Of a DNA stretch of 64,000 nucleotides, positions 9,762 through 63,719 are shown piece after piece. Within the stretch, counting starts at the first letter, position 1, and the number at the start of each line of letters is the position of its first letter. The stretch is from Eledone cirrhosa (taxonomy: Eukaryota): contig OZ024748.1 in the NCBI GenBank assembly GCA_964016885.1, positions 12,958,001 through 13,022,000 of the forward strand, given 5' to 3'. The position numbers and the translations under genes were made by a program. A model generated the notes under the pieces. The model ran no database searches. It saw only the letters and a program-made list of their open reading frames with translations, and was not told where the DNA came from.

Positions 9762-10276
9762 CGCGTGTGTACGTGCCTATGTGTATGTCTGTTGGTATGT
9801 ATACGTATGTATGATTGCGTGTTAATGTGTGTGTGTTTGCGTGCGTGCAAACTGAACAAAACGCCAATTAGAAGTTTATTACTTTCTTTATTCATTTATT
9901 TATGATTTTCTAATGTTTCTGAGTCAACGCAACTTTCACTTTCAAATAATATATATACTCATATATACAAATGACTGAATGGATTGTTGTTGTATTGAAC
10001 GATGTGCATTCAGTCGTTGAAACAACGTAACTGCCCCCTTATAGAACAATATTATAAGAAGCTGAGTTTTGTTGGTAAAATTATAAACCTTACCTATACG
10101 AGAATGGAAAATAGAATCTTTAAAACAACGAATACTTCAGAGACGCTATATATTATATATATTTTAGATAAATGATCATTAGCATATTTAGTCCAGACTA
10201 AACTTCTCTTAGGCTAAACAGTATTACGGAAACTGTTAATTAAAGGTTTACTCTTTTACCTGTTCCAGCCATCCGG

Positions 10277-10390
10277 GTTACAGTACCGAGGTTTCCCAAG
10301 CGGTCACCCATCTAATTACTAACTAGGTTCGACGTTGCTTAACTCCGGTGATGGGACGAGAACCGATGTTTTCAGCGTGATATGGCGTAC
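10277..10390 (-). pseudogene. 5S rRNA pseudogene
   Basis: Minus strand gtacgccatatcacgctgaaaacatcggttctcgtcccatcaccggagttaagcaacgtcgaacctagttagtaattagatgggtgaccgcttgggaaacctcggtactgtaac matches invertebrate 5S rRNA (box A agttaagc, box C gatgggtgaccg) with scattered substitutions; single dispersed copy. Confidence 0.9.
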
Positions 10391-10580
10391 ATGAAATAAT
10401 ATGCATATAAAATATCTATATTTAAACTAACATATATTTAAAATATATCCTGATAATATATTCTTCTTCCCGTTCTCCTTTCTTCTTTCTCTTTTGTTTG
10501 TCTACAGAAAACTTCAAAACGTACCACAGCTGGGGCTTTTCTCACTGTACTACCACTTGTTTTACAATATTTACCTAAAC

Positions 10581-15877: not shown

Positions 15878-15916
15878 CTGATATATATATATATATATAC
15901 ATATATATATCAGATA

Positions 15917-16110
15917 GGGTGTGGTAAAATACCAAGTGGACCATAACCTCCCAGAGTACTTGATACTTGGGCTAGTAGAGTGGTTAATATGAAAAGAATC
16001 AGGACCCCGAGGGCTGAGCTCCGGCCGTTTCGATAGCTAGATCCAAACTGTTCGGATATAGCTGTCGAAACAGCCGGAGCTCACCAGACGGGGTCGTGAC
16101 TTTTTTTCAT
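15917..16110 (-). mobile_element. Family A (subfamily 2) hairpin-plus-tail element
   Basis: Tail gtgtggtaaaatacc..ggaccataac..gagtacttgatact..gtagagtgg, then inverted repeat atgaaaag..gaccccg..gagctccggccgtttcga / tcgaaacagccggagctc..cggggtc..ttttcat. Confidence 0.8.
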
Positions 16111-16113
16111 CTA

Positions 16114-18592: not shown

Positions 18593-18705
18593 CTAGTTGT
18601 TGAAACGGCCAGAGCTCAGCCGTCGGGATCCTGAATTTTTTCATATTACCCACTCTACTACCGCAAGTATCGAGTACTCTGGTGCGCTATGGTCCACCTG
18701 GTATC
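18593..18705 (+). mobile_element. Family A (subfamily 2) single arm plus tail
   Basis: gaaacggccagagctcagccgtcggga..tcatattacccactctactaccgcaagtatcgagtactctggtgcgctatggtccacctgg. Confidence 0.8.
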
Positions 18706-18779
18706 ATTTTCAACATATGGATTACATTGAGTTCTTCATGCAGACCAGACCCCCAAAACTTACCGTGGATATCTGTGTG

Positions 18780-18928
<149 letters not shown>

Positions 18929-19456: not shown

Positions 19457-20073
<617 letters not shown>

Positions 20074-25929: not shown

Positions 25930-26078
25930 CAAAATTAAGATAAATTAAATGAATTTAACCTAAATCAAAATTATGGGTGTCATGCCATAACGGCATGCGC
26001 CATATCACCCGGCAAATAAGCTCAAAGATTATCTCCTGTGATTATTCATGTTTATATATATGTTAATCAATTTCTAGT

Positions 26079-26138
<60 letters not shown>

Positions 26139-26516
26139 CAACTAAAAATTGATTAACATATAAATAAACATATGAAACAATCACAGGGGATAATTTTTAC
26201 AAGTGTTTAAGCACACATAGCTAGGTAGGTAACTAAATAAAGTTAACTAGAACTTCAAAAATAGATACCTTATAATATTATAAGGTATCTATTTTTGAAG
26301 TTCTAGCTATGTGTGCTTACACACTTGTAAACATTATCCCCTGTGATTGTTTCATATGTTTATTTATATGTTAATCAATTTCTAGTTGTTATAAAATGCT
26401 CGGACCTATTCATTAGAATCTTAGAGCTTATTCTACGGGTGATATGGCGCATGCCTTTCTGACATGACACCCATAATTTTGATTTAGATTAAATTCATTT
26501 TGATTTATCTTAATTT

Positions 26517-26519
<3 letters not shown>
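25930..26519. repeat. Nested inverted repeats (family D) between (TA)n tracts
   Basis: Inner palindrome 26134-26393 centred on ccttataatattataagg; outer arms 25930-26030 and 26420-26519; third copy of the inner arm at 26028-26082. Confidence 0.85.
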
Positions 26520-26588
<69 letters not shown>

Positions 26589-26642
26589 AACAAGTATGAC
26601 CCCTTCTGATGAAGGTTAACGCTTGAAATAGCAGGAAGAGGG

Positions 26643-26678
26643 TCTTAACGTTTCCGACGCTAGTCCTTCATCAGAAGA
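26643..26678 (-). ncRNA. Minimal Penelope-type hammerhead (family E)
   Basis: UCUU-CUGAUGA-A-GGAC-UAGC-GUCG-GAA-ACGU-U-AAGA; stem III is reduced to palindromic ACGU. Confidence 0.65.
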
Positions 26679-26939
26679 AAGAAAGAGAAATAAGATAGAT
26701 TGAAGGGACGAGCGGGGTGGAATTTGAAAAAAAATGTCTTTAAATAAAAATAACAGGTCCTTTCATGTTGACATCTCTTGGAAAAAGTTAGGTAAGAGTG
26801 ACACAATGACAAATGCGACCAGAGGCATGTTGCACCAGAGGCAGACTACAACAATGAAAAATACAGACAGGTTAAAGACAAACCTGAATACATACAGATT
26901 AACATTCGTCTTTAAGTATTTTTCGTTGTTGTAATATTA

Positions 26940-27527: not shown

Positions 27528-27656
27528 TATATATATATATGCAAAGGTTATATTTAATTTATTGGAATTCAGTAAACTTAAAAGTTTTATAACTGATATA
27601 AAGCACTCAACTAATAAGTGGAGTAAATATTCATTATATTAATAAATGGAAACTAT

Positions 27657-27758
27657 ATTTATAAAACCATAATTATTTTATTATATATATTTCAAGGGCA
27701 ACCAAGACAAATTTTGGTGCGCTTTCATCAGATAAAATACAAAATTAGTTTTATAAAT
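27657..27758 (-). ncRNA. Type I hammerhead ribozyme (family C), left arm of palindrome 27632-27907
   Basis: Near-exact reverse complement of 27781-27882. Confidence 0.8.
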
Positions 27759-27780
27759 GTTGACATGCGGGTATGTCAAC

Positions 27781-27882
27781 ATTTATAAAACTAATTTTGT
27801 ATTTTATCTGATGAAAGCGCACCAAAATTTGCCTTGGTTGCCCTTGAAATATATATAATAAAATAATTATGGTTTTATAAAT
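27781..27882 (+). ncRNA. Extended type I hammerhead ribozyme (family C)
   Basis: Outer stem I atttataaaacta/tggttttataaat, internal loop, inner stem I tattttat/ataaaata; CUGAUGA 27808-14; stem II aag.gca.ccaa/ttgg.tgc.ctt; GAAA 27846-49; palindromic stem III AUAUAUAU; predicted cleavage after A27857. Confidence 0.82.
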
Positions 27883-27904
27883 ATAGTTTCCATTTATTAA
27901 TATA

Positions 27905-27961
<57 letters not shown>

Positions 27962-35528: not shown

Positions 35529-35728
35529 NNNNNNNNNNNNNNNNNNNNNNNNNNNNNNNNNNNNNNNNNNNNNNNNNNNNNNNNNNNNNNNNNNNNNNNN
35601 NNNNNNNNNNNNNNNNNNNNNNNNNNNNNNNNNNNNNNNNNNNNNNNNNNNNNNNNNNNNNNNNNNNNNNNNNNNNNNNNNNNNNNNNNNNNNNNNNNNN
35701 NNNNNNNNNNNNNNNNNNNNNNNNNNNN
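35529..35728. other. Assembly gap (200 N)
   Basis: A run of exactly 200 N; a fixed size suggests a scaffolding join of unknown true length. Confidence 0.98.
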
Positions 35729-40404: not shown

Positions 40405-40481
<77 letters not shown>

Positions 40482-40484
<3 letters not shown>

Positions 40485-40640
40485 CAAAAGATGGTTAAAT
40501 GAGTTCCATGTATTTTATTATGCGCATTTCAAAAACAAATATCATCATGCAATAACATTTGTGTTTTCATCAGATAAAATAGGAGGACATGATATGAAGG
40601 TTAAAAACACTTGTGGATAGTGCAGTTGTAAATCAATATA
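40482..40640 (-). mobile_element. Family B element, full ~160-bp monomer with HHR (40511-40581)
   Basis: CUGAUGA core, palindromic stem III AUGCGCAU, stem I tattttat/ataaaata; TA on both sides. Confidence 0.85.
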
Positions 40641-40661
40641 TATATGCATATATATATATGT

Positions 40662-40840
40662 GTGAAAAGATTCAGAACCCCGACGGCTGAGCTCCGGCCG
40701 TTTCGACAGCCAGTCCGCGACTAGCTGTCGAAACAGCCACATCGCACCCGTCGGGGTCCTGAATCTTTTCATATTACCCACTCTACTGCTCCAAGTATCG
40801 AGTACTCTGGTGGGTTATGGTCTAGCTGGTTTTTACCACA

Positions 40841-40845
<5 letters not shown>
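40662..40845 (+). mobile_element. Family A (subfamily 2) hairpin-plus-tail element
   Basis: tgaaaagattcagaaccccgacgg...ccgtcggggtcctgaatcttttca plus the conserved tail. Confidence 0.85.
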
Positions 40846-41001: not shown

Positions 41002-41054
41002 TCTCTCTCTCTATCTATCTATCTATGTCTCTCTCTCTATATATATATATAATA

Positions 41055-41195
41055 TAAGATCAAAAGATGGTTAAAAGAGTTCCAAGTATTTTATTATGCG
41101 CATTTCAAATATTTGCGTTCTCATCAGATAAAATAGGGAAACATGATATGAAGCTTAAAAAACACTTGTGAGCAGTGAAGTGTTAAATCAACATA
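41055..41195 (-). mobile_element. Family B element with stem II deletion
   Basis: Colinear with 40482-40640 but lacks about 22 bp of stem II. Confidence 0.8.
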
Positions 41196-41208
41196 TGAAA
41201 AATATATA

Positions 41209-41275
<67 letters not shown>

Positions 41276-41283
<8 letters not shown>

Positions 41284-41467
41284 ATACTTTGGGAGGGTCA
41301 TGTTGCCAATAAGAAACACACGCACCAGTTGCTTTCACTTCAATTTAATTTATTAAATATTTATAAATTTGTAAATTTATAAATATTTAATAAATTAAAT
41401 TGAAGTGAAAGCAACTGGTGCGTGTGTTTCTTATTGGCAACATAACCCTCCCAAAGTATAACAATAT
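41276..41467. repeat. 192-bp near-perfect palindrome plus short tail, between (TA)n tracts
   Basis: Arms of ~95 bp with one visible mismatch; 2-nt centre at 41371-41372. Confidence 0.92.
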
Positions 41468-41521
41468 CGGTTTCAACACACGATTTCAGATAAAGAATCT
41501 TGCTAAACAAATTCAGAAACG

Positions 41522-41565
<44 letters not shown>

Positions 41566-42302: not shown

Positions 42303-42375
<73 letters not shown>

Positions 42376-42438
42376 AACATAATAACTATGATATATATAT
42401 ACATACATACATATAAATATATATAGATACATACATAT

Positions 42439-42496
<58 letters not shown>

Positions 42497-42518
42497 ATAT
42501 ATATACATACATACATAT

Positions 42519-42591
<73 letters not shown>

Positions 42592-42594
42592 TAT

Positions 42595-42648
<54 letters not shown>

Positions 42649-42658
42649 TCATACATAC

Positions 42659-42767
<109 letters not shown>

Positions 42768-42801
42768 TATACATATATATATACATATATATGTATGTAT
42801 G

Positions 42802-42942
<141 letters not shown>

Positions 42943-42949
42943 GAATATA

Positions 42950-43019
<70 letters not shown>

Positions 43020-43088
43020 CAGACATACATATACATATATATATATACATATATATATATTCATACATACATATATATATATATATAC

Positions 43089-43119
<31 letters not shown>

Positions 43120-43129
43120 CATATATATG

Positions 43130-43233
<104 letters not shown>

Positions 43234-43470
43234 TGTATGTATATATATATATCATAGTTATTATGTTGGTATGTTGGCTCAACATAATTTCAAGCAAACA
43301 GTAATACATATTAATCGCCTGCAGCTCGAGGCCTCTGTTGATATATTTCAGTCCACATCTAATTTTACAAATGGCAACCAGGCTTTGCTATTTAGCACTC
43401 CTCTACTTCATAAAAATCTGCTTGAAACTATTTCATTCTTGCCTCTGTATATACAGTAACGCCCATCTAC

Positions 43471-45931: not shown

Positions 45932-46035
45932 GTATATACATACACACATATATATATATTTATATATATGTATATAAATATACATATGTGTGTGTTTGTG
46001 TGTGTGTGTATCTATATATCTATATACATATATAT

Positions 46036-46114
<79 letters not shown>

Positions 46115-46560
46115 TATATATGTATATAGATATATAGATACACACACACACAAACACACACATATGTATATTTATATATATGTATATATATATACATATA
46201 TATATATACACACACATATATATGTATATAGATATATAGATACACACACACACACACACACACGCAAACACACATATATATATGTATATGTGTGTGTGTG
46301 TATGTATGCGTGTATTTGTGCTTATGTATGTCAGTGTATATCAATGTATATATATATATAGAGAGAGAGAGAGAAAGAGAAATAGGGGGGATATGGGGTA
46401 GTGGAGAGACATGAGCTGACGAACGAAGAAGGAAAGCGGCGCCAATGAGGGCGGGACATAGTTTGTTGGTCAAGCGGGAGGTCGGAAGGAGCCGGACAGC
46501 TCAACAATACCCGGTTTCAGTTGCGATTGTTCCTAACCTGAGCTGGGTAGAAAGCTCCCT
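45770..46560. promoter_or_regulatory. Candidate divergent (head-to-head) promoter region
   Basis: Two CpG-containing unique islands: ccacgcccaatt at ~45837-45848, and CCAAT 46442-46446 plus GGGCGG 46449-46454; separated by a palindromic microsatellite. Confidence 0.4.
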
Positions 46561-49596: not shown

Positions 49597-49915
49597 GTTT
49601 CATTTTGTATACTATGTATACTAACTGAAGACGTTTTTAGTTACTAAGATAATGTGGGTGTTTAGTAAAGGATTGTCACAGTTGAGGAGTGTTTCTTTTC
49701 CGAAATCAGAGGAACGAGAAAGGAGGAATACGAAATTCTCTGAAACAAAAGAAAGAAGTTCTTTTGACTCATTTAAATCGCTGCTTCTATTATGGGAATA
49801 GAACGGCAATTGTTTTTGTATATATAGTATACATATTTCTAGATGCTTGTTCAATACGTATTATAATACGTATATATCTATATATATCTATCTATATATA
49901 TATATATATATATAT

Positions 49916-50110
49916 ATAGGAAAAAGTATGACCCCGACGGCAGAGTTCAAGCCGTTTCCACGGCTATTTCTGGACAGAAATAGCCGTCGAAACGGCTTGA
50001 GCTCTGCCGTCGGGGTCATACTTTTTCCTATTTCCCACTCTACTACCCTAAGTATTGAGTACTCTGGTGCGTTATGGTCCATCTGATTCCTTACCACAAT
50101 TCCTTTGTTA
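49916..50110 (+). mobile_element. Family A hairpin-plus-tail element (most complete copy)
   Basis: 116-bp palindrome 49916-50031; right arm holds GAAA(49989-92)-ACGGC/GCCGU-C50011-GGGGUC; tail runs to (TA)n. Confidence 0.9.
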
Positions 50111-50237
50111 TATATATATATATATGTATATATATATACAGTATTTACGTATCGAGAAAGAGAAAAAAAGGGGAGGATAGGTGATACATATAGTTATTTA
50201 CCAAGTAGCGTATGCCAATATATATATATATATATAT

Positions 50238-51187: not shown

Positions 51188-52123
51188 GTATATATATGCA
51201 TATATATATATACGAATATGCATATGTAAATGTGTATACGCATATACACATTCAAGCACTTATAAATATCTATATGCACAGACACCCCCATCTCTCTCTA
51301 TATATATGTGTATATATATGTGTGTGTATGTATATATATATAGGTAGGTAGGTAGATAGAGAGAGAGAGAAAAAAAAAGAGAGAAAGAGAGAAGATTAAT
51401 GGATAGATAGTTTGATAGCTAGATAGATAGATAGGCAGTTAGATATACAGGCCTACATATATACAGACATACCTATATACATGTTTGTAAAGTGTGTGTA
51501 TATTACACTGGCAAATGTATGGGAATTTATAATTCAGCTTTCTTAATATTTATTGAATTATTCACAAATTTGGGATATCTGTGAAATGATTAGTTACAGA
51601 CCTCCTTGAGTTGTGGCATTTATTCATAACTACGTGAAGGTTGGACTCCATAAATAAAGTAAGGCGATGTACAAGGCAAGTTAACTCAAACTGATTTGAG
51701 AACTGATGAGGTGAAGATGTGTGTGTGTAAACTTGTCTTGTACATCGCCTTTATTTCTTTCTTCTTGTCACTTCTGTGCACCAACACATTTCTCCTTGAC
51801 CTCATCCTCTTTCAATCTTTTCTATATTTCATCTGCCTTTCACCAACCTTTTGGGTTGTCATTCTGTTGAGCACTGGCCGCTGGTCTCTGTCCTCTGAAG
51901 TATTCTTGCCCATCGCTGTCTTTGACAGCATTTTGTTGTTTTAACGGCTGCTCTAGCGATGAGTTTTCTCATTTCTATATGTATTATATACATATATATG
52001 GGGTGGGTAAAATTCCCGTAAAATGTCCGTGTGTGTGGAAAAGGTAAACAGAAATAACAACACAATCGGTACAGTATATGGAGCGAATATATTAGGTTAA
52101 CGCTTGAAAGAGCAGGAAAAGTG

Positions 52124-53503: not shown

Positions 53504-53698
53504 TAACGAAGGAAGTGTGGTAAGGTACCACATGGACCATAACGCACTAGAGTAATCAATACTTAGGGTAGTAGAGTAAGTAATAGGAGAATGTTTAACC
53601 CCGACAGCAGAGCTCAAGACGTTTCGACAGCTATTTCAGACCAGAAATAGCCGTCGAAACGGCTTGAGCTCTGCCGTCGGGGTTAAACAATCTCCTAT
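53504..53698 (-). mobile_element. Family A hairpin-plus-tail element
   Basis: Tail followed by palindrome 53583-53698; (TA)n on both sides. Confidence 0.9.
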
Positions 53699-54855: not shown

Positions 54856-54860
<5 letters not shown>

Positions 54861-54992
54861 AACCAGTAAGACCCCGACGGCTGAGTTCAAGCCGTTTCGA
54901 CGGCTAATTCTGGACTCACCCACTCTACTACCCTAAGTATTGAGTACTTTGATGCGTTATGGTCCACCTGGTTCCTTATCACATTTCCTTCG

Positions 54993-54994
<2 letters not shown>
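54856..54994 (+). mobile_element. Family A element with one arm deleted
   Basis: Left arm joined directly to the tail (ctggac|tcacccactctac). Confidence 0.85.
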
Positions 54995-56807: not shown

Positions 56808-56883
56808 TACATATATATGTATACTTGCATGCATACACATACAAATATATATATATAATATTAAAAAAAAACAAAAAAAAACG

Positions 56884-56986
56884 AAAAATCAGTGATGCAT
56901 CTAGACTCAGTTTATTGCGTGTTACAATTGGTTCGCCGACAATTGTAACACGCAATAAACTGAGTCTAGATGCATCACTGATTTTT
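56884..56986. repeat. Perfect 47-bp-arm hairpin plus tail next to (TA)n
   Basis: aaaaatcagtgatgcatctagactcagtttattgcgtgttacaattg-gttcgccga-reverse complement. Confidence 0.92.
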
Positions 56987-57076
56987 TTTTATTTTTATAT
57001 TATATCACATTCTGCTCTGTAAGAACATCGAGTGCTCACCTGGCATACCGCCTATGGAAGCACCATAGCTACCATT

Positions 57077-58951: not shown

Positions 58952-59059
58952 ACGAAGGAAATGTGGTAATATACCAGATGGACCATAACGCACCAAAGTA
59001 CCAGAATTAGCCGTCGAAACGGCTTGAGCTCAGCCGTCGGGGTCCTACTCGTTCCTATA
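58950..59059. mobile_element. Family A element, internally deleted
   Basis: Tail end fused to the outer arm (caaagta|ccagaattagccgtcgaaacggc...ttcctat). Confidence 0.85.
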
Positions 59060-61087: not shown

Positions 61088-61090
<3 letters not shown>

Positions 61091-61148
61091 GCGGTGCGTC
61101 AGCATGGCCTCAGCCGGATGGCTGGAACAGGTAAAAGAGTACAAGAGT
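61088..61148 (+). mobile_element. SINE/LINE 3' tail fragment
   Basis: ggcggtgcgtcagcatggcctcagccggatggctggaacaggtaaaagagta; the last 28 nt are identical to the reverse complement of 10249-10276. Confidence 0.7.
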
Positions 61149-61183
61149 ATATATATATATATATAAAAATATATATATATATA

Positions 61184-61499
61184 TACCCTAAGTATTGAGT
61201 ACTTTGATGCGTTATGGTCCATCTGGTTCCTTACCACAACACCTTCATTATATATATATATATATATGCAATGATATTAAATAAATGGAAACTATATTTA
61301 TAAAACCATATTTATTCTATTATATATATTTCAAAGGTACCAAAAATTACCTTTGAAATATATATAATAGAATAAATATGGTTTTATAAATATAGTTTCC
61401 ATTGATTTAATATCATTGCATATATATATATATAACGAAGGCGTTGTGGTAAGGAACCAGATGGACCATAACGCATCAAAGTACTCAATACTTAGGGTA
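61184..61499. repeat. 316-bp composite palindrome (family A tail - (TA)n - family C half HHR, then its mirror image)
   Basis: Centre aaaggta-ccaaaaat-tacctttgaaa at ~61343; arms include both families. Confidence 0.9.
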
Positions 61500-61584
61500 G
61501 TAGAGTGAGTAATAGGAGAAAGTATGACAGAAATAGCCGTCGAAACGGCTTGAGCTCTGCCGTCGGGTTCATACTTTCTCCTAT
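61433..61584 (-). mobile_element. Family A element with partly deleted arm
   Basis: Tail plus ataggagaaagtatgac|agaaatagccgtcgaaacggc...catactttctcctat. Confidence 0.85.
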
Positions 61585-63300: not shown

Positions 63301-63677
63301 CTATTCATTATTTCGTCTCATTGCCAAAATGTACGTGAAATTAAATCCAATATTTTATTTTACTTTTATTAGTTACTGATAAGTATACACACACACACAC
63401 ACACACACCCATTCACACATATTCATACACATACAAAAATACGCACACACACACACACACACAAACACACGTATACACACATATATATATATATATACAT
63501 ACACATAAACACATACAAGCGTGCACATATATAAAAGATGGGACGCGTGTATGTACGGTATATATGTATATATATATAAAAGATGATACGCGTGTATGTA
63601 TGTATGTATTTAGAAACATATACTCACACAGAAGCACACACATATATATATATATATATGTGTGCTTCTGTGTGAGT

Positions 63678-63719
<42 letters not shown>

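Follow-up and report, generated by a model that had tools for sequence, protein, structure and literature searches.

A palindrome at positions 61184-61499 of the analysed window (the whole stretch of 64,000 nucleotides) has arms that run out of one short hammerhead-type element, cross a (TA)n spacer and continue into the tail of a neighbouring element of another family. By whatever route, this palindrome was probably produced by DNA-templated fold-back copying. The fold-back might well have been coupled to insertion, as the snap-back of a cDNA made by a Penelope-like element (PLE), a reading that we hold more tentatively. Such fold-back copying is of a known type, and the new aspect is the overshoot of the arm into the neighbouring element. 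The likelihoods that we attach to the different readings are a matter of judgement and were not computed. Family labels A and C are those of the original prediction; B, D, E and F were assigned in the present analysis.

The palindrome at 61184-61499

Local alignment of the reverse-complemented left arm (61184-61339, 156 nt) with the right arm (61348-61499, 152 nt) gives 149 identical positions out of 152. The arms differ by three substitutions, two of which are CpG-type transitions, and by a single gap of 4 nt, which lies in the TA spacer (left arm 19 nt, right arm 15 nt). The palindrome is thus present in the sequence as had been described, and the same alignment confirms that the mirror crosses the (TA)n spacer, duplicates about 65 bp of the adjacent A tail and ends in (TA)n. 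From the centre outwards, each arm begins with 73 nt of family C-type sequence (hereafter C'), which is followed by the TA spacer and then by 65 nt of the tail of family A (Table 1). The centre itself is the 8-nt loop CCAAAAAT (61340-61347), and the stem around it is predicted to form a DNA hairpin of -3.6 kcal/mol. At its outer end the left arm passes into (TA)n through a 2-nt TA overlap, while beyond the mirror the right arm continues into the rest of the family A copy that we call A9. The spacer between C' and A9 is the presumed priming site. Between the left and right arms, the C' parts have 1 difference in about 72 positions and the A-tail parts 2 in 66.

Table 1. Features of the palindrome and its surroundings, together with the intact family C palindrome used as a reference
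Feature	Positions	Strand	Description
Intact family C palindrome (reference)	27541..27888	.	head-to-head pair of complete minimal hammerheads
Left flank, probable SINE tail (3' fragment, 60 nt, of a different repeat)	61088..61147	+	
(TA)n tract receiving the left-arm end	61148..61185	.	18 nt, AAA, 17 nt
Inverted copy of the terminal 65 nt of the adjacent A tail	61184..61248	+	from alignment to A copies
Duplicated TA spacer, left	61249..61267	.	19 nt
Left C' arm	61267..61339	-	antisense of stem II 3' strand, GAAA, helix III, short end
Fold-back centre	61333..61354	+	7-bp stem AAAGGTA/TACCTTT around the loop; equivalent to hammerhead stem II
Right C' arm	61348..61420	+	minimal type I hammerhead, 3' half only, reaching the short end of the family
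TA spacer between C' and A, tail to tail	61420..61434	.	15 nt
Family A copy A9	61435..61583	-	tail and long arm, joined head to head to a plus-strand short arm

The hammerhead core motif consists of CUGANGA and GAAA boxes. C' has only the 3' half of it: GAAA (61355-61358), the palindromic helix III ATATATAT and an AUA triplet are in place, and TATATTTC stands where CTGATGA would be expected. In other words, the 5' core box CUGANGA is replaced by the mirror of the 3' half, and the locus contains half a ribozyme, twice. The reference palindrome of family C is different in this respect. Its centre lies at about 27769, some 40 nt upstream of the core, with the long arm to the left and the short arm to the right, and its hammerheads at 27808 (+) and 27731 (-) both have CTGATGA, an 8-bp helix I, ATATATAT and ATA. 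These copies show the layout of minimal PLE hammerheads in their core boxes, helix I, helix III and UH triplet; the G10.1-C11.1 pair is absent, helix II being closed by A-U in both C and B copies. The C' arm and the short arm of the intact copy (27845-27915) agree in 59 of 66 positions, and their ends are no more than about 2 nt apart; the C' loop has 7 of 8 nucleotides in common with the loop at 27821-27828 (for any given position, a chance of about 9e-4). The centre of the palindrome is accordingly a family C half-hammerhead, folded in stem II, as the original prediction had it. The accompanying statement that the intact form is present in the same window stands as far as the intact hammerhead at 27808 is concerned, but this copy belongs to a related subfamily, in which stem II exceeds that of C' by about 10 nt, and is not the same element. 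Across the window, Rfam reported no hammerhead at the gathering score. Searches up to E 10 of 27540-27920 and 49910-50115 returned no hammerhead either, the matches being hairpin-shaped, due to chance and below the gathering score, and in the free folding of 27790-27880 the hammerhead fold did not stand out (z -0.53).

To judge by its sequence, the extra arm is derived from A9 or from the source of A9, because it has 2 differences from A9 in 66 positions, both of them CpG-type transitions, vs 6-22 differences (55-66 positions compared) from the other eight A copies. An origin in the adjacent copy was what had been proposed. The extra arm starts at +33 after the predicted A cleavage site; the recurrent A ends are at +19 and +97. 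In A9 itself the plus-strand short arm has GAAA at 61542-61545 and GUC at 61562-61564, and the long arm extends to +4 after the predicted ribozyme cleavage site. The start of this long arm, at 61525-61528, looks as if the template had been a self-cleaved RNA. With the CpGs of its short arm kept and few differences from its closest copies, A9 looks about as young as the palindrome, so their apparent ages lend no support to A9 being the older of the two.

Long-plus-short palindromes in the window

In families with multi-copy tails, all ten head-to-head palindromes combine a long arm with a short arm that ends at a fixed site. Eight of them belong to family A (727-945, 15915-16112, 40660-40845, 49916-50108, 53505-53698, 54856-54994, 58952-59058 and 61435-61583) and two to family E (25930-26081 and 26138-26518). 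Three further palindromes, of families B, C and F, the tails of which are single-copy, are excluded from this count and look long-plus-short too. An inverted short arm is carried by 8/9 A copies and ends in all eight at the same aligned position; the remaining copy, A3, is 5'-truncated just upstream of GAAA and has no inverted arm. Single-arm B copies that end at the short end are found at 40476-40645 and 41054-41205. The eight A and two E palindromes show the anatomy of PLE insertions, namely an inverted 5'-truncated copy, a tail on one arm and a (TA)n target. The palindrome ends lie in TA runs, with the exception of one A short arm in a GATA/GA run.

In the four young A copies, the short arm is nearest to its own long arm, with 0, 0, 1 and 1 differences vs 1-7 over the 16 compared positions from the cleavage site to the short end. 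Long arms start at +20 in A7, +49 in A8 and +4 in A9; the arms of A7 do not overlap at all (long arm from +20, short arm to +19), and the long arm of the left E copy already ends 27 nt past the short end. Since in A7, A8, A9 and the left E copy the short arm contains sequence that is absent from the long arm, snap-back alone cannot yield them. Twin priming at two fixed sites on one RNA fits the long-plus-short palindromes better than snap-back does. A competing possibility for these palindromes is one-sided deletion from the palindrome centre, against which the position of all four losses on the long side (1 in 16) is weak evidence. Twin priming is familiar from L1, where two target ends prime on one RNA and an inverted 5' part results, the second site not being fixed. 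The L1 scheme fits the other palindromes of the window and, by itself, leaves the arm beyond the element at 61184-61499 unexplained. Twin priming never extends an arm past the element, and therefore this locus needs either DNA-templated copying or an RNA that contains A sequence.

The original prediction had regarded the locus as an independent family showing the same stem-II-centred symmetrisation. As a rule this fails, because the B and C palindromes are not centred at stem II: the B palindrome has its centre at about 15321, about 40 nt upstream of the core, and keeps both ribozymes, just as the intact C palindrome does. Nor does family A offer a parallel case, its long-plus-short anatomy indicating a different route. 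In addition, a motif scan found the CTGANGA core in none of the A copies in the window, so stem II of family A is placed by position only. The locus at 61184-61499 is thus an exception among the palindromes of the window and no repeat of the family A pattern, and a mirrored flank was seen in none of the 13 other palindromes inspected. We also considered an ACTC...GAGT hairpin common to the long tails of A, B and C. Each of these tails can form such a hairpin, but homology was unsupported by shuffles, as none of the 15 pairwise tail alignments was better than shuffled sequences (108-497 of 500 scored as high), and the candidate was dropped. More palindromes with one arm ending in (TA)n are present at 41279-41524, 56873-57075 and 51652-51760; the motif scan found no hammerhead core in them.

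Routes to an overshooting arm

If the fold-back was coupled to insertion, the following order of events can be proposed. A PLE reverse transcriptase would nick (TA)n at the tail end of a resident A copy, and a cDNA would be primed from the nick at the short start site of family C. This cDNA would end after about 90 nt, just past ribozyme stem II. Its 3' end might then fold back through the 7-bp stem and be extended on DNA, either by the reverse transcriptase or by a host repair polymerase, along the cDNA and then, past the priming junction, through the TA run and into the A tail for 65 nt. Finally, the released strand would pair by TA with the other target end. Supporting this reading is the observation that one event accounts for all junctions; the extra arm is nearest to the adjacent A copy and stops at a non-recurrent position, and both single-arm short-end copies and the 5'-truncated A3 exist in the window. 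Against it count the ribozyme-free fold-backs described below, the weakness of the stem (-3.6 kcal/mol) and the restriction to a single locus. Moreover, all ten verified palindromes are long-plus-short, and therefore an ordinary C' palindrome could have been extended later. The earlier idea of a cDNA snapping back and copying into the flank thus explains the shape in one event and agrees with the stem II centre and the A-derived arm, whereas the coupling to reverse transcription and the role of A as a resident flank are put forward as proposals.

The later extension of an existing palindrome deserves the closest attention among the alternatives, although we consider it unlikely. C' would have inserted beside A9, as an ordinary head-to-head palindrome or as an intact single copy, and a template switch during repair or replication, with no reverse transcriptase, would have extended the arm afterwards. 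After a break or switch in the left (TA)n, the strand would fold on the 70-bp inverted repeat or on stem II and lose its unpaired end; it would then be extended along the TA run and 65 nt of A and be rejoined through TA, in the manner of snap-back SD-MMEJ. Mirrored flanks centred on TA arrays do occur in the window more often than in shuffles. They were found at 3/275 arrays, a total that includes the arrays of one 100-nt low-complexity stretch excluded from the match list; shuffled pairings gave a mean of 0.23 mirrored arrays, and 1/300 reached 3. One of the three matches, at 26082-26137, was dropped as a fold-back, being two separate E copies placed tail to tail. The two remaining fold-backs, with no ribozyme or element at the centre, are at 46045-46104, where at least 40 nt of flank are mirrored (46016-46133), and at 63642-63659, where 24 nt are mirrored (63619-63680). 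The latter leaves into TA by a TATA overlap, with the same anatomy as the locus at 61184-61499. Because such ribozyme-free fold-backs exist at TA arrays, fold-back at the DNA level needs no cDNA. A side observation concerns 42371-43272, where an 18-nt non-repetitive inverted repeat flanks 900 nt of microsatellite; the left one of the two repeat copies runs out into (TA)n through a TAT overlap, and the structure is possibly a long-range fold-back.

A long palindrome would also be expected to fold far more readily than a 7-bp stem, and snap-back synthesis followed by microhomology joining is an established repair route (PMC5728401). On the other hand, the two-step route requires two events at one spot, and mirrored flanks are missing from the 13 other palindromes. 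It also predicts a C' part more diverged than the A part, whereas we saw 1 difference in about 72 positions vs 2 in 66, numbers too small to decide, the more so as a template switch could homogenise the arms. Of what an SD-MMEJ product should contain, the locus has a 7-bp stem, but the overlap at its exit is no more than TA (2 nt), and synthesis would have run past five TA-phase overlaps that come earlier in the copied tail. The run of 150 nt at the locus is longer than typical SD-MMEJ inserts.

Quite unlikely, in our view, is a composite RNA, in which a read-through transcript of C', (UA)n and antisense A9 was copied as a unit from the far end of A9. The second arm would then be the product of a snap-back that stopped within the cDNA or of another priming event on that RNA, and no genomic flank would have been copied. 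In its favour, the plus strand of the unit ends at the recurrent short end of A (61583), a likely start for the reverse transcriptase, and the ends at 61499 and 61583 are 84 nt apart, near the 78-nt spacing between the short and long ends of A. Capture of flanking or host DNA by PLEs has been reported (PMC3846280). However, such an RNA would have no sense sequence on the 3' side of the start site, as was required by a purified PLE protein (PMC11167929), although the transfer of this requirement to the present family is an assumption. Added 3' sequence left the main product of the protein unchanged, and read-through capture is therefore disfavoured (PMC11167929). In addition, the left end of the palindrome is no recurrent end, and within the window 1/9 A copies adjoins a C piece. 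Recurrence of A and C as a compound element, which had been named as an observation that would speak against the fold-back, is therefore not seen, on a count whose scope is the window alone. An exact-pattern scan of metagenome contigs for the C motif gave no match, as did a scan of viral, genome and metagenome contigs for the A motif; the count of composites in public contigs (0 matches) is uninformative, as it comes from collections without any A or C motif.

The other explanations fare worse. A sequencing or assembly artefact in the form of an inverted chimeric read is very improbable, as the arms of a chimera should be identical and these differ by three substitutions (two of CpG type) and in TA length, and as the centre lies on a natural stem with the loop retained. 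In a search of public runs, which listed 19 with no RNA run among them, the best three, all of one sample, contain 0.47-0.49 of 47 sampled words, and this is not interpretable as read support. Hardly credible is the coincidence of an independent 5'-truncated A copy in the TA run on the left side of a C' palindrome of the short-plus-short type. With nine in 64 kb, A copies are common, and they cluster in TA runs, but the left piece has the variants of A9 itself (2/66 vs 6-22 differences), and the coincidence would need both an unsampled near-identical subfamily and a short-plus-short palindrome, the latter found nowhere else in the window.

Returning to insertion-coupled snap-back, one might speculate that PLE insertion has two branches, with both cut strands normally priming on one RNA and a single cDNA sometimes snapping back; we regard this wider scheme as doubtful. 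In the main branch, two cDNAs would be started at two fixed sites and joined head to head at an RNA hairpin. It would give long-plus-short palindromes with matching arms, which would be non-overlapping when the long cDNA stopped early. In the second branch, a lone cDNA would fold on itself at ribozyme stem II, and its extension would pass the priming junction and go on into the target. If this is the case, the locus would be a genomic fossil of the snap-back branch and an in vivo sign of continuity between PLE cDNA and target. We found neither two-branch PLE insertion nor a fossil of snap-back overshoot in the literature searched.

Known systems and the sequence context

Several of the proposed steps have counterparts in known systems. 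One PLE protein, studied in purified form, nicks AT-rich DNA and extends it along RNA, starting at fixed internal sites; it cuts and extends both strands, and two internal RNA start sites bound the tail (PMC11167929). The inverted pseudo-LTRs of endonuclease-bearing PLEs have been attributed to self-priming as a proposed cause (PMC3846280), while the way in which PLEs form tandem and inverted ends has been called undefined (PMC8557442). With pseudo-LTR PLEs, the palindromes described here have in common a head-to-head inverted 5'-truncated copy, a tail at one end, (TA)n targets and palindromes at the inverted junction; unlike in those elements, the arm at 61184-61499 runs past the element, through TA and into a different element (PMC8557442, PMC3846280). 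An arm of a PLE extending into its flank was not reported in the literature searched, which covers older Penelope work thinly, and among the matches listed, judged by titles and abstracts, no paper dealt with both twin priming and pLTR, while three of them mention twin priming as well as Penelope-like elements.

The locus also resembles R2 snap-back, in that an antisense copy of the insert is fused at the 5' end and joined to the upstream target. R2, a site-specific non-LTR element, has been investigated in human cells, and its snap-back 5' junctions contain copied cDNA or nearby target DNA; priming by the 3' end of the cDNA takes place on the cDNA itself or, more rarely, on target DNA close by, and the junctions are a minor class (PMC11371274, PMC11331408). 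No continuous run from the cDNA over the priming junction into the flank is described in the passages on these junctions (PMC11371274, PMC11331408). The locus is comparable to snap-back SD-MMEJ in a short inverted primer repeat, templated synthesis and a putative microhomology exit, but SD-MMEJ involves no retroelement (PMC5728401). The intact C copies resemble the minimal type I hammerheads of metazoan PLEs in the core boxes, the 8-bp helix I and the short palindromic helix III, and hammerhead pairs on opposite strands 100-700 bp apart have been noted (PMC4209133). Unlike these hammerheads, C' is a 3' half present twice, with stem II closed by A-U instead of the usual G-C (PMC4209133).

Arms that overshoot into the flank allow a distinction between fold-back on a DNA template and models in which the template is RNA. 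If counted across a genome and combined with the long-plus-short rule, such arms would make PLE end formation testable from assemblies alone. Little can be proved with one locus, and in vitro work on one PLE has previously demonstrated that target DNA can serve as the primer (PMC11167929).

By their anatomy, the pieces discussed here look like PLE ends that were inserted in (TA)n. It is on anatomy that this assignment rests, because no coding parent (RT and GIY-YIG) was found when the list of open reading frames in the window, dominated by simple-repeat frames, was read by eye. The repeat landscape of the window seems to be that of a cephalopod genome, and a run of 200 N at 35529-35728 points to a scaffolded assembly. 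The window is rich in short hammerhead-type pieces within TA runs. Among 19 hand-listed pieces, 5/18 neighbouring pairs are 75 nt or less apart with simple repeat between them, and the gap between B1 and A4 is 14 nt, the same as between C' and A9, so the adjacency of C' and A9 needs no special cause. On the left of the palindrome, the flanking fragment is identical at 28/28 nt to 10249-10276, which lies immediately downstream of a 5S rRNA-like match (10275-10392). The 5S rRNA-like sequence at 10249-10392 (67.5 bits) has its tail in common with 61088-61147 and is possibly a 5S-derived SINE. An A variant with a longer tail, and with a third common end, occurs at 18593-18782 and 19586-19665. The former, the longest A copy, has an open 65-residue frame, for which a protein search returned four candidates, none at E 0.01, and thus no homolog. 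At 26588-26800 there is a family D copy with an intact minimal hammerhead on the minus strand, and it terminates in a 13-nt inverted copy of its own core, after which comes an A-like piece that runs from the cleavage site to the short end. This patchwork suggests template jumps between families.
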